From assembly GCA_947627215.1 (NCBI GenBank), contig CANQVD010000018.1, positions 6,250 through 70,249 on the forward strand: 64,000 nucleotides of DNA. The letters are read 5' to 3'. A program made the translations under genes and the position numbers. Of the stretch, positions 3,440-6,439 are shown in pieces. The stretch is from an uncultured Eisenbergiella sp. Its GTDB lineage: Bacteria > Bacillota > Clostridia > Lachnospirales > Lachnospiraceae. How positions within the stretch are numbered: position 1 is the stretch's first letter; each line of letters opens with the position of its first letter. The notes under the pieces were generated by a model, which was not told where the DNA came from, did no database searches, and was given only the letters and a program-made list of their open reading frames with translations.

Positions 3440-3675
3440 GTTTCTGAATGCTCCTTTTCATGGATATCATGTAGACCGCATTATATCATCATGGGTCTGC
3501 GGTGTAAAGGGACGAAAAATCGTCGATACCATAACAGACGGCGCTCTTCGGAAACCGCCGGTACGCTTCACGCATATCTTAACCTCTCATTGTATGCTAC
3601 AGCCATAAAATATTTTCGGCAACAAAAATTTGATAAATTTTTTTAAAAAACACTGGTTTTTCCCATGAAATCGTA

Positions 3676-3681
3676 TATAAT
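3676..3681 (+). promoter_or_regulatory. Sigma-A -10 box (TATAAT) ahead of the structured leader and PemK-like gene
   Basis: Perfect TATAAT in an AT-rich tract; no consensus -35 at 17 bp. Confidence 0.55.
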
Positions 3682-3686
3682 ATAAA

Positions 3687-3835
3687 CAGAGGTTCAAATC
3701 AAATGCCTCTGAAAATATTCTTTACTCATGGAAAGGTATTTTTGACCGACAAGGTCACACATGAAAGGATAGTTTGACCGACGAGGTCTCTCTGGGTAAC
3801 CAGAGCAGGGTATGGTTAGCGCCATACCCTTTTTT
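3687..3835 (+). ncRNA. Candidate RNA antitoxin / structured leader with two 32-nt-period repeats
   Basis: Hairpin CAGAGG/CCTCTG (3687-3711); repeats GAAAGG-N4-TTTGACCGAC(A/G)AGGTC at 3731-3756 and 3763-3788, each folding GACC/GGTC; CTCTGG-GTAA-CCAGAG GNRA hairpin (3790-3805); terminator. Confidence 0.6.
3807..3835 (+). terminator. Intrinsic terminator between the leader RNA and the PemK-like toxin
   Basis: AGGGTATGG-ttagcg-CCATACCCT followed by a T run. Confidence 0.85.
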
Positions 3836-3862
3836 CACTTAAATTAAAAGGAGATTTCCATA

Positions 3863-4525
3863 TTGAAGGAATACCTGAAAGCACAAATCAAGACAGATGC
3901 CGCCATTCTGAATAACGCATACAGCCTTGATGAAATAGAACGTTTTTCAAAGGCCGACTACCGTTGGGCAGATAACAAAGGTAAATCTTTCCAACATAGA
4001 ACTGTAAAAAAGGGCGATATCTATCAGTTCGAATTTGGGAAAAATTATATTCCTGAAATGTCATATGAACATAGAGGACTTGTAATCGGAGTGAAACAAA
4101 AGCTTCTTTACATCCTCCCAATCTTTTCCTATGATCCCAATAAACATCCAGATGTTTTCCATCCCGGCGACCATCCAGAATCCAAAAGCGACCTATTCCT
4201 ACTCAAAGGCAGTGAATTCTCATTTATCACGCATGATTCTGTATTAAAGCTGAATGATATCCGAACTGTCAGTATCAACAGAATCCTCTACCAGCACCAA
4301 GGCCGCATTGATCCGTCATCAGATACATATAAACAAATAGAAAGACTGGTGCTGCAAAAATATTTTCCTAACTTTTATCACGATTATAAGCAAGGGTGTC
4401 AGACAATAGACTCTCTAAATGAGCAACTTAAGGAAGCTGCAAAAAAGATAGAATTTTTAGAAATCGAAAACAATCAGCTCAAAGAAGAGTTGGAAAGACT
4501 CAAGAATAACATTAACAGTAAATGA
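3863..4525 (+). CDS. Solo PemK/MazF-fold endoribonuclease toxin with C-terminal coiled coil
   Basis: 'KKGDIYQFEFGKNYIPEMSYEHRGLVI' and 'DSVLKLNDIRTVSINRI' match PemK-like motifs; AAGGAG at 3848-3853, TTG start; AT-rich; no protein antitoxin ORF nearby. Confidence 0.75.
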   Translation: MKEYLKAQIKTDAAILNNAYSLDEIERFSKADYRWADNKGKSFQHRTVKKGDIYQFEFGKNYIPEMSYEHRGLVIGVKQKLLYILPIFSYDPNKHPDVFHPGDHPESKSDLFLLKGSEFSFITHDSVLKLNDIRTVSINRILYQHQGRIDPSSDTYKQIERLVLQKYFPNFYHDYKQGCQTIDSLNEQLKEAAKKIEFLEIENNQLKEELERLKNNINSK

Positions 4526-4643
4526 TGTTTTTCCACTAAAATGGCAGGAAGATCAAAACGCCAGAACAAAAATGTATACATTTTTATAAAAGCACGGTAC
4601 CGCCATTTTTTAGGAGGGTGGTACAGCCACCCCACCCCGTGCC

Positions 4644-5105
4644 TTAATCCCTGTGAATAAAATGCTCAATGCCATTGCCGATATCCGTGATCTTATCCCT
4701 GATAAAATATGGATAGATATTCAAATTCCTGATCTCCGTTAATGCTACCCATTCCAGACGGACATGACGGTTATCGTTCAGTGAGGTAAGATCGGCGTGA
4801 ACTATCTCATCTGATGTCTCAACCAGATAATAAAAAGCAATGCCGTGAGCGTCTTTATCTTTCCATTTGAAAAAGCTCTCGTCACACCAGATCATTTGTT
4901 TGCAGCGGATTTTTAAGCCTGTTTCCTCAGAAAATTCACGAACAAGGGTTTCTTCTGCCGTTTCACCGATCTTAACATGACCGCCGGGCAGAGCGTATTC
5001 GCCGTTATCACTCTGGACGAGTACCATATCCCTGTCGATCAGAATTCCGACAGCCCGGAACAAGCAAACGGTATTATCCGCTTCAAAATGCCAATCTCTG
5101 CTCAT
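4644..5105 (-). CDS. NUDIX hydrolase
   Basis: Nudix box 'GGHVKIGETAEETLVREFSEETG'; start moved to ATG 5105 behind GGAGG. Confidence 0.9.
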   Translation of the reverse strand: MSRDWHFEADNTVCLFRAVGILIDRDMVLVQSDNGEYALPGGHVKIGETAEETLVREFSEETGLKIRCKQMIWCDESFFKWKDKDAHGIAFYYLVETSDEIVHADLTSLNDNRHVRLEWVALTEIRNLNIYPYFIRDKITDIGNGIEHFIHRD

Positions 5106-5234
5106 AAAGGTATTCCTCCGCAGGGCTCGATCTGGACTCGGGAAAGTTCGCCATACCCATGTCAATCTGTCCCCGCCAAGATCCGCCAACTGCATTTTCG
5201 TGATGATCCCTTTCATGACCTTTCCGCCCGAAAT

Positions 5235-5876
5235 TTATATCCGCTTCGCCATCGAGGCCCCCATCTCATATACCTTTTTGCATTCCATCGGGAATACCGT
5301 CTCGTGCCTTTTTTGCTTTGCCCTGGCATCAAACATCGACCATTCCCAGTCCGTCCTGCTGTAATCCCTCAACTGAAGGGTATCTCCGCTGACGAAGATC
5401 TCCGCAGGCCCGACAAACCGGCTCAAAGTCTGCTGATAATTCCGAAGCAATCCCTGATACATATCGTCCGGCGCGTTGCTTGTCATGATCAGCAGCACCG
5501 GGATCAGATGTTCATTGCAGCAGGGATTCTCCATATTATAGGTGAGATTCTGGAAGATCAGCCGCTCATACAGAGCGCGGAACGACGCAGTCATCTCACT
5601 GAGGTAATTCGGCGAACCGATGATAAGACCATCCGCCGCACGGATTGCATCCAGAACCGGCGTCAGACCGTCCCTGCATACGCAGCAGCCCTTGCTCTTC
5701 TCATTTTTGCATCCGAAGCAGGAGATACAGCCCGTGTACCTTTCAAGCCGGAACAGATCAAACTTCTCCACCTCCGCGCCTGCGGATTCCGCTCCTCTGA
5801 CCGCTTCTGCGATCAATGTATCCGTATTCCAGCCTTTTCTGGGACCGGCATTTACTGCTATGATTTTCTTACTCAT
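5235..5876 (-). CDS. Flavodoxin family / NADPH-dependent FMN reductase with Cys cluster
   Basis: 'AGPRKGWNT', 'CISCFGCK...C', 'GSPNY'; start at MSKKII. Confidence 0.85.
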   Translation of the reverse strand: MSKKIIAVNAGPRKGWNTDTLIAEAVRGAESAGAEVEKFDLFRLERYTGCISCFGCKNEKSKGCCVCRDGLTPVLDAIRAADGLIIGSPNYLSEMTASFRALYERLIFQNLTYNMENPCCNEHLIPVLLIMTSNAPDDMYQGLLRNYQQTLSRFVGPAEIFVSGDTLQLRDYSRTDWEWSMFDARAKQKRHETVFPMECKKVYEMGASMAKRI

Positions 5877-6439
5877 ACATTTCCTCCTGCGCATTTCGTC
5901 TGACGTGTTTTTTTCAAAAGCTCCCTCTTCACGTAGGCGAAGGTCTCCTTCTCGCCCTTCTCCGCCAGCATATACAGCAGCTTTTCCAGGATCGCCTTCG
6001 TGTCCGGGTGGATGATGGGCCGCTCCTTGCCGTAGAGATAATAGTTCAGCGGGTCCTGATCCGTGTAGGCGCTGCCCCGGTAGGTCTTGGAGGCGGCGAT
6101 GCGGTCCATGAACATCTCCGCCACATACCTGATCGGCATGGGCGCGGGGGCCATGCCGCCCTCAAAGGCCCTGGTGCTGTAATCGATCCAGTATTCATAG
6201 TGGTGCTTGTTGCGGCCCTTGTGATGCATCCAGGCTGTAGAATAGCCGATGTCCTCCCGCTCTGCCGCGTTGGGGCTGCGGTTCCCCTGATAATATTTCG
6301 CGCCGATCCGAAACTCCGTCCAGGAATATTTGGACAGATCATGACAGATGCCCTGCCAGTAGAGCCCTACCGCAAAGCATCCTTTCATCACCAGATATTT
6401 ATGATGTGTGATCGTTTTAAAATGCTGTAACGCTTTCAA
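5873..6439 (-). CDS. DUF5662-type HD-like protein
   Basis: 'HDLSKYS', 'HHKGRNKHHYEYW', 'MFMDRIAASK' His/Asp pattern. Confidence 0.7.
   Translation of the reverse strand: MKALQHFKTITHHKYLVMKGCFAVGLYWQGICHDLSKYSWTEFRIGAKYYQGNRSPNAAEREDIGYSTAWMHHKGRNKHHYEYWIDYSTRAFEGGMAPAPMPIRYVAEMFMDRIAASKTYRGSAYTDQDPLNYYLYGKERPIIHPDTKAILEKLLYMLAEKGEKETFAYVKRELLKKTRQTKCAGGNV

Follow-up and report, generated by a model that had tools for sequence, protein, structure and literature searches.

The 64-kb stretch of DNA analysed here, referred to throughout as the window, comes from an uncultured Eisenbergiella sp. (Lachnospiraceae; contig CANQVD010000018.1 of assembly GCA_947627215.1) and carries on its forward strand a compact cassette in which a promoter is followed by a structured leader RNA, an intrinsic terminator and an open reading frame (ORF) whose product has a predicted MazF-type toxin fold. 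Coordinates are positions in the window, and homologous loci, genomes and distant proteins are numbered with the prefixes L, G and P, respectively. An earlier note, made from the letters of this region, had described a TATAAT box, a 5′ hairpin, repeats, a third hairpin, a terminator and a TTG-initiated ORF, all of which are present at the positions it gave, to within a base or two. The order that it read from these features (promoter, structured RNA, terminator, toxin gene) is confirmed, and approximately 80 loci share it.

The promoter region (3653–3681, + strand, as are all features of the cassette) consists of a −10 box, TATAAT (3676–3681), and a CTGG(A/T)TTTTT box (3653–3661) at the −35 position. 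The same box, together with (T)GTRTATAAT, is kept in the Lachnospiraceae homologues (L009–L072), and the Oscillospiraceae homologues show, at the same place, the consensus TTGACA-17-TATAAT. The Lachnospiraceae box matches TTGACA poorly; it may serve as an unusual promoter element or as the site of a regulator. A simple promoter scan of the window did not flag the cassette promoter because its −35 element is non-canonical.

The 5′ stem-loop of the transcript, P0 (CAGAGGT...GCCTCTG, 3687–3711), is present in both the centroid and the minimum-energy folds. Most homologues carry a hairpin 5–8 nt past the −10 box, with a stem sequence that varies by locus (AGAGG/CCUCU, AGAAGC/GCUUCU, GCAG/CUGC and AGUAGUU/AACUACU are among the variants), and P0 probably acts as a 5′ stabiliser of the transcript. 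Downstream lie two copies of a 26-nt direct repeat, GAAAGG-N4-TTTGACCGACRAGGTC (3731–3756 and 3763–3788), 81% identical and spaced by 32 nt; Tandem Repeats Finder called neither this repeat nor any array. Each copy ends in a hairpin with a 4-bp GACC/GGTC stem, HP1 (3744–3756) with the pentaloop GACAA and HP2 (3776–3788) with the pentaloop GACGA. These are followed by HP3, a 6-bp hairpin (CTCTGG-GTAA-CCAGAG, 3790–3805), and by the intrinsic terminator (3807–3835), composed of AGGGTATGGT-TAGC-GCCATACCCT and a TTTTTT run, to whose stem (3807–3830) the terminator scan assigned 10 pairs. Compared with shuffled sequences, the fold of the window leader has a z-score of −5.05, none of 200 shuffles folding as well.

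The ORF (3863–4525, 220 aa) is read from a TTG codon (3863–3865) that follows a Shine-Dalgarno sequence, AAGGAG (3848–3853), the two forming an initiation region at 3848–3865, and it encodes N-terminal helices, a predicted MazF-fold core and a C-terminal coiled coil. TTG predominates as the start codon among 68 long homologues (41, with 14 ATG and 6 GTG). The end of the RNA model and the start codon are separated by 9–31 nt in most loci, a gap which therefore leaves no room for a separate ORF promoter, and the TTG start and absence of an own promoter fit a tight limitation of the protein. In the window the cassette lies between an MFS transporter gene and a NUDIX hydrolase gene, which are encoded on the other strand; beyond these lie genes for an FMN reductase, a DUF5662 protein and a LytTR regulator, none of them antitoxin-like.

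Conservation of the leader was followed in 80 genomic loci fetched from Lachnospiraceae, Oscillospiraceae and other Clostridia. In nearly all of them GACCGAYRAGGTC occurs ∼85–95 nt 5′ of the start codon, and the leaders can be aligned. From 68 distinct leaders a covariance model was built (128 positions, 30 pairs); in 81 of 88 sources it matched once and only once per locus, each time immediately 5′ of the ORF. The model gave no second match in the window, and in the whole of the own genome it matched at this locus only. Among 150 genomes of a family sample, matches were confined to the window's own genome, a single remnant and the five scanned genomes in which the protein search had given a strong match. 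The leader RNA and the ORF are thus linked exclusively and one to one.

Covariation across homologues, proposed in the earlier note as a check on the repeat hairpins, was found in the leader. In a model-guided alignment of the 81 leaders 94.2% of cells are paired, and 26 of the 30 pairs show compensatory changes on both sides. None of 500 shuffles reached the observed values, and sliding the partners by 1–3 columns reduced pairing to 36–44%. RNAalifold, applied independently to a MAFFT alignment, recovered HP1, HP2, part of HP3 and the terminator. Conservation is highest in HP2 (helix 3 of the model), which is 100% paired with three of four pairs changed on both sides and which in most loci is located ∼85–95 nt 5′ of the start codon. 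HP1 (helix 2) is 95% paired and all 5 of its pairs have changed on both sides, as in GGCC/GGCC, GGUC/GACC and GGCU/AGCC, and HP3 (helix 4) is 94.5% paired with both-sided changes at all 6 pairs, its stem in Oscillospiraceae loci reading CCAAGU/ACUUGG. The terminator (helix 5) is 99% paired, six of nine pairs having changed on both sides. The GNRA cap attributed to the third hairpin exists in the window and is not a feature of the homologues, in which UUAG, UUCG, GCAA and other loops are found and the loop sequence is not conserved. The G-U pairs that are frequent in the leader fit only the + strand read as RNA.

As the earlier note had judged, the RNA units are simple hairpins and not obvious pseudoknots. 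Its description of tandem RNA repeats applies to the two copies in the window, to which the 26-nt repeat is specific; across the family the repeated unit is only a ∼17-nt hairpin, UUWGRYC-GNNRA-GRYC, and two loci (L047 and L048) have a single hairpin. At the position of the 5′ half of the first copy most homologues form a separate small hairpin, CACUUG...AAGUG (helix 1 of the model). The suggestion that single-stranded GAAAG is a cut site has become weak, the GAAAGG spacer being kept in the Lachnospiraceae subgroup only and the Oscillospiraceae spacer being unrelated. In this subgroup the spacer may pair with an upstream UUCUUUC; this possible long-range helix, UUCUUUC/GAAAGGA, is weakly supported, with 68% pairing compared with 49–59% in slid controls. 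Folding of the alignment minus the 3′ arm of the terminator yielded no conserved antiterminator pairing.

The loops of both hairpins conform to G-N-N-R-A in all 81 leaders, GACGA and GACAA dominating and GAAGA, GAUGA and GGCAA being rare. The third base of the loop tends to vary in both hairpins of one locus (GAAGA/GAAGA in three loci, GAUGA/GAUGA in one and GGCAA/GGCAA in one), and the loop variants co-occur with the most divergent ORF proteins. These concerted changes suggest that both hairpins are recognised by one cognate partner, although gene conversion from one hairpin to the other could produce the same pattern. The boxB hairpin of phage P22 likewise carries the pentaloop GACAA, which takes up a protein-binding, GNRA-like fold in which the C is extruded towards the N peptide (PMC12550061). 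All of the loop variants seen would yield a GNRA tetraloop upon extrusion of the third base. Duplicated short hairpins with conserved loops are a signature of protein-binding sites and not of a ligand pocket.

The ORF product scores below the cut-off for PemK_toxin (PF02452; E = 0.005, 17.4 bits against 23.1), the match covering residues 49–161 and profile positions 1–103 of 109, and its other Pfam matches are coiled-coil noise at residues 175–220. An AlphaFold2 model made from 35 homologues (mean pLDDT 83.9) predicts two N-terminal helices (residues 2–38), a beta-barrel (52–148), a helix (154–167) and a long helix (169–219), that is, a MazF-fold barrel at approximately residues 49–167 followed by a C-terminal coiled coil at 169–219 and, in all, ∼100 residues beyond a minimal MazF. 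When this model was compared with the PDB by Foldseek, the top 50 matches were all MazF, YdcE or MoxT (probability 1.00; TM-score on the target 0.59–0.72), including Bacillus subtilis YdcE/MazF (1ne8, 4mdx), 4mzm, 5hjz and Staphylococcus aureus MazF, as well as Mycobacterium tuberculosis MazF-mt1, -mt3 and -mt9, MoxT and Escherichia coli MazF. ToxN, CptN and AbiQ were absent from these 50. The claim that the protein is PemK/MazF-like rather than a ToxN is thus borne out by AlphaFold2 and Foldseek together, and the core, in its modelled form, is a MazF/YdcE fold.

Sequence comparison was less informative. PADLOC, NCBIfam and PHROGs searches of the ORF gave coiled-coil noise and nothing useful, PDB searches by single sequence and by profile returned coiled-coil noise only, and no ToxN/AbiQ, CptN or TenpN family match was obtained by sequence from Pfam, NCBIfam, PADLOC or the PDB. 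In 35 homologues, down to 42% identity, 40 columns are invariant. The conserved core motifs, GxIYQFEFGKN, PEMSYEHRG-LVIG, LLYVLPI(F)SY, YHP.D.P and HDSVLKLNDIRTVS..RI, follow the order of the MazF motifs GDIY, HRP-VVL, (V)P(C/L)T(T/S) and DSV..L.Q.RT as found in the canonical MazF of the own genome, and the invariant motifs sit at the beta1-beta2 loop, beta2 and beta3 of MazF. That protein, the only canonical MazF of the genome (PF02452, 125 bits), is encoded on contig C1 (L094 1483–1998, − strand) directly 3′ of the alanine racemase gene (alr), an order reminiscent of that at the B. subtilis ydcE (ndoA/mazF) locus. By motif order, H70/R71 and S89 would be the catalytic residues; alignment to canonical MazF, both by hhalign and pairwise, is reliable only at the C-terminal DSV..L..R motif, and the mapping of catalytic residues therefore stays tentative. 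The ORF product is a candidate toxic RNase.

No protein partner accompanies the gene. All ORFs of at least 50 aa within 2.5 kb were clustered across the ∼80 loci and no conserved partner emerged, the best other cluster occurring in 7 loci; apart from the gene itself, the only widely shared "ORFs" were spurious frames that run over the leader. No MazE/PemI-type gene lies beside the ORF in the window, and none is conserved beside it in the ∼80 loci, in agreement with the earlier reading that a protein antitoxin is lacking. DNA homology between the window and 77 loci starts at ∼3633 at the earliest and is over by ∼4496. The conserved unit is therefore the promoter, leader and ORF, ∼0.9 kb in all.

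This unit looks foreign and horizontally acquired. Its GC content is 35–41%, compared with 52–67% in the flanks, 8 of the 201 genera sampled in the family carry it, and within the genus it was found only in the own genome and as a remnant in one sister species. A tblastn search against 72,556 plasmids and 50,697 phage records gave no match; two IMG/VR contigs carry the cassette with its leader. On one of these (L109, 70–8642) the cassette lies on the opposite strand inside a phage replication module, surrounded by genes for a VapE-like protein, DUF7768, a Bro-N/KilAC antirepressor, DNA polymerase A, an Enc34-type single-strand-binding protein and a DUF2800/PD-(D/E)XK nuclease. In ∼7 genomic loci the cassette likewise has a similar polymerase-like ORF on its 3′ side. 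Relatives of the ORF at E ≤ 0.001 number at least 883 among 90%-identity clusters, and a profile search of 1.84 billion representative proteins returned 322 clusters (50% identity) at the same threshold.

Among ORFs of at least 190 aa the leader is present in 64 of 68; two of the four others (L021, L059) have no readable upstream DNA and two (L058, L069) are damaged, so that no intact ORF in this set lacks the leader where upstream DNA can be read. Shorter ORFs, most of which are truncated or frameshifted, retain the leader in 11 of 12 cases. The converse, a leader that outlives its gene, is observed repeatedly. In the sister species G204 promoter and leader are 96% identical to those of the window (leader 112 bits) and codons 1–180 of the ORF are deleted, window position 3854 being joined to 4402. 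G005 (L104, 1501–1755) retains an orphan leader of 130 bits and a 31-codon remnant in which the first 12 codons are fused to the C-terminal tail, the MazF core having been excised. Approximately seven further loci combine a frameshifted or truncated ORF with an intact leader. Retention of the leader with loss of the toxin core is the pattern that a toxin with a protective upstream element would show, and counts as weak evidence. The G204 locus (L102, 1139–2179; junction 2518/2515) occupies the same chromosomal site, where the MFS gene is separated from the cassette promoter by a ∼1-kb insertion that contains an AraC-like ORF, and this genome is also without the NUDIX and FMN-reductase genes (window 4542–5909 deleted).

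Distant full-length members of the protein family keep the N-terminal helices, the MazF-like core and often the coiled coil. With filters off, the leader model gave no match upstream of five such relatives from other Bacillota families (L112–L116), and detailed inspection of L112 and L113 revealed no obvious protein partner. The leader thus arose within the Lachnospiraceae/Oscillospiraceae subfamily, and the scaffold can exist without it. L113 (G482) has an upstream element of a different kind, ∼190–110 nt 5′ of its ORF start (2181, − strand), in which a consensus-like promoter leads directly into a ∼45-nt terminator-like hairpin, GACAGGCAA...TTGCCTGTTTTTT, ∼100 nt before the ORF. This element is possibly a second, independent leader RNA of the protein family. 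Seven distant proteins (P0169, P0176, P0177, P0183, P0186, P0194 and P0214) have an extra C-terminal domain of ∼90 aa ending ...Y.L.L.D..GN...K; in these R71 is replaced by Met, and H70 and H100 are kept. Such relatives look like a wider uncharacterised MazF-like family, possibly with His-based chemistry. The weakest profile matches (L117, L119) are ordinary type II MazF genes with a ribbon-helix-helix-type gene upstream.

The leader does not belong to a catalogued RNA family. Rfam 15 gave no match in the whole window at gathering score, chance-level matches only over 3600–3900 at E ≤ 10, with pemK, ToxI and abiF absent, and nothing over the leader in 20 homologous loci; the Rfam search proposed earlier for ToxI, CptI, TenpI and pemK-type families accordingly returned no family. 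Identity with the pemK motif (RF02913, gathering score 34.8 bits), raised in the earlier note, is rejected, as RF02913 did not match in 3600–3900 even at E = 10. That motif (Weinberg et al. 2017) resembles the leader in being a conserved RNA structure upstream of PemK-family genes in Bacillota, but is a different, three-stem element of 61 positions beginning AUAAUGAUACUUCCG. The RF02913 model works in the own genome, where it matches three other places at 35–43.5 bits. The three matches (L089 1501–1618, − strand; L090 1501–1555, − strand; L091 1501–1569, + strand) have small ORFs on their 3′ side that PF02452 does not detect as PemK, so that in this genome the "pemK" motif precedes no recognisable PemK gene. 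A PyrR-like reading of CCAGAG-AGGG in HP3 was dropped, the sequence being unconserved in Oscillospiraceae and the Rfam PyrR model giving no match. Two orphan RNA motifs were observed upstream of the cassette leader at homologous loci, a drum RNA (RF02958, 68 bits; L084 629–739) ∼90 nt away and a FuFi-1 RNA (RF02986, 118 bits; L073 1002–1165) ∼1.7 kb away. A literature search, which did not cover the supplement of Weinberg et al. (2017), found no earlier description of the leader RNA or of an RNA-controlled MazF.

The layout has an experimental precedent in AbiF/RCd22 of the Clostridioides difficile phi027 prophage, in which a SigA-type promoter, an RNA of ∼100–130 nt in which a conserved hairpin motif occurs twice, a Rho-independent terminator and a ribosome-binding site precede a promoterless toxin gene (Saunier et al. 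2025; PMC12373285). There, the RNA acts in two ways, lowering read-through in cis by a factor of 17 and, by binding directly to the toxin, neutralising it in trans (PMC12373285). The two systems share this layout, the lack of a protein antitoxin, occurrence in Bacillota and association with prophages or mobile elements; they differ in the RNA, the AbiF motif (RF03085) having no match in the leader at E ≤ 10, and in the protein, AbiF having an Abi_2 (AbiD/F) fold and the cassette a MazF fold. Pfam detects no Abi_2 domain in the ORF.

Comparison with the classical type III systems is more mixed. In a type III locus a terminator precedes the toxin gene and tandem repeats of 31–62 nt are present in 1.9–5.6 copies before this terminator, and the RNA, which the toxin cuts into units, binds the toxin directly and so neutralises it in trans (Blower et al. 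2012; PMC3401426); CptIN, moreover, also occurs in Lachnospiraceae (PMC3401426). ToxIN, CptIN and TenpIN resemble the cassette in the order of promoter, repeated RNA, terminator and toxin, in the Kid/MazF/CcdB-like class of the toxin and in repeat number, the ∼2 copies of the cassette lying within 1.9–5.6, but are built on pseudoknot-forming arrays of 31–62 nt, whereas the cassette has boxB-like hairpins of 13–17 nt in an otherwise non-repetitive RNA. Set against the features by which Blower et al. define these loci, the cassette has the terminator, its protein belongs to none of the ToxN, CptN and TenpN families, and its repeats are borderline in the window and fall short family-wide. It is therefore not filed as ToxIN, CptIN or TenpIN.

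The protein itself is closest to MazEF/PemIK (PF02452), with which it shares the core fold and the positions of the motifs GDIY..., HR followed by a hydrophobic strand, LPI(F)S and DSVLKLNDIRT. It differs in having no MazE/PemI gene, in its extra N-terminal helical hairpin and C-terminal coiled coil, and in an invariant His70 where MazF has its catalytic Arg region. ToxN-type toxins are structural cousins of MazF, and proper MazF-fold toxins are regarded as type II, that is, protein-neutralised. The leader also recalls the N-boxB system of phages lambda and P22 in its short, GNRA-like pentaloop hairpins 5′ of a terminator. This resemblance is structural only; in the cassette the hairpins are duplicated, the hosts are Clostridia, and neither an N-like arginine-rich peptide nor a boxA was identified.

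Combined, these results led us to propose, with a probability of roughly one half, that the cassette is a type III-like, RNA-controlled toxin module, closest in layout to AbiF/RCd22, in which the RNA attenuates expression in cis and binds and neutralises the protein in trans. A constitutive promoter would give rise to a structured RNA of ∼150 nt, and most transcripts would end at the terminator as a free small RNA. A minority would read through into the MazF-fold gene, which has a weak TTG start and no promoter of its own. Lying between promoter and ORF, the terminator implies by its position that the RNA limits toxin synthesis in cis. The two boxB-type hairpins, with GACRA loops whose third base is extruded, would bind a dimeric protein, possibly one hairpin per subunit, and the bound RNA would keep it inactive in trans, in the manner of RCd22 with AbiF and of ToxI with ToxN. 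Should transcription stop or the RNA decay, for example during phage infection or after loss of the element, free protein would be expected to cleave cellular RNA.

Several observations weigh against this proposal. MazF binds extended single-stranded RNA and not hairpin loops. The MazF assignment comes from a predicted structure; the Pfam score is too low, a genome scan with PF02452 giving the same sub-cut-off result, and hhalign against the canonical MazF of the own genome aligned 21 columns only. R71 is replaced by Met, Pro or Ser in distant relatives, in which H70 and H100 are kept, and the chemistry may therefore differ from that of classical MazF. The full-length ORF at L048 is preceded by a single hairpin. 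The absence of intact ORFs without a leader is weak evidence for an antidote function because loss of the leader would also remove the only promoter. Finally, since distant relatives of the same architecture have neither the leader nor a visible partner, the protein may need no RNA antidote.

The last of these points is the main argument for a different explanation, in which the leader is purely a cis attenuator that sets or switches read-through at the terminator, by way of a host RNA-binding factor or of autoregulation through the ORF product, and the RNA is no antidote to a protein kept harmless by other means, such as self-inhibition. The N-terminal helices or the coiled coil could provide such self-inhibition, as in fused toxin-antitoxin proteins, and the protein has ∼100 residues beyond a minimal MazF; the terminator directly precedes the ribosome-binding site, and Rfam files the analogous pemK motif as cis-regulatory. 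Against this explanation, no alternative pairing was conserved when the 3′ arm of the terminator was left out; what is conserved are duplicate hairpins of a protein-binding type and not a ligand pocket. The leader, moreover, has stayed intact after deletion of the ORF in two genomes (G204 and G005), and in AbiF/RCd22 the same layout has been found experimentally to do both jobs. We regard pure attenuation as possible but less likely.

It is unlikely that the roles of RNA and protein are reversed, with a non-toxic MazF-scaffold protein that matures, stabilises or delivers the small RNA and an RNA that is itself the effector on host or phage transcripts. Conservation of the RNA exceeds that of many small RNAs; the RNA has a 5′ hairpin that would stabilise it, ends in a terminator of its own and outlives the ORF in G204 and G005, and the canonical catalytic Arg of MazF is unconserved in the wider family, all of which would suit such an effector. 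However, the ORF is broken in ∼10–15% of loci and mostly has a weak TTG start, and the cassette is patchily spread and apparently acquired horizontally, features that are typical of toxic or defence genes and not of the housekeeping partners of small RNAs. Nor did any complementarity to a target come to light, though no search aimed at it was made.

The likeness to boxB raises the possibility, which we consider very doubtful, that the leader is a decoy nut site, at which the N-type antiterminator of an invading phage binds the boxB-like hairpins and causes read-through of the terminator, such that toxin is made only in infected cells. If true, this would be a defence triggered by the phage's own antitermination machinery. 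GACAA and GACGA fall into the class of pentaloops to which P22 boxB belongs, the hairpins lie directly 5′ of the terminator that gates the toxin gene, and one cassette resides within a phage replication module. Nevertheless, the loop variants shift together with the most divergent ORF proteins, which points to the cassette's own protein as the partner, and no boxA-like element was identified. BoxB-binding N antiterminators are known from lambdoid phages of enterobacteria, and none is known from phages of Lachnospiraceae.

That the gene belongs to an ordinary type II MazEF pair, the antitoxin having been missed as very small, overlapping or encoded elsewhere, is highly improbable. The ordinary MazF genes at L117 and L119, with their upstream ribbon-helix-helix-type gene, speak for such a pair, but the neighbour test yielded no conserved candidate of 50 aa or more within 2.5 kb, homology stops at the edges of the cassette, nothing but spurious frames over the leader appeared as "conserved ORFs", and antisense ORFs inside the gene occur in subsets of 5–7 loci only. 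The notion that the hairpins are DNA-level, single-strand recombination or transposition signals that move the cassette, which is mobile yet has no transposase and whose hairpins are palindromic as DNA, is hardly tenable, as they lie inside the cassette and not at its ends, between promoter and terminator in the sense orientation of the gene, with G-U pairs that fit one strand as RNA only.

The RNA-controlled toxin module thus remains the reading we prefer, and its consequences depend on what the RNA does. If the RNA binds and silences the MazF-fold protein, the cassette would link type II and type III systems and would add a fourth toxin lineage with an RNA antitoxin, beside ToxN/CptN/TenpN and AbiF, as well as a new RNA family outside Rfam 15 that uses boxB-like pentaloop hairpins as protein-binding units. 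If the RNA is only an attenuator, the cassette is still a clean case of an antidote-less MazF-like gene under a terminator-gated leader. In either case it is widespread in gut Lachnospiraceae and Oscillospiraceae, and it is compact, such that experiments on it are easy to set up.

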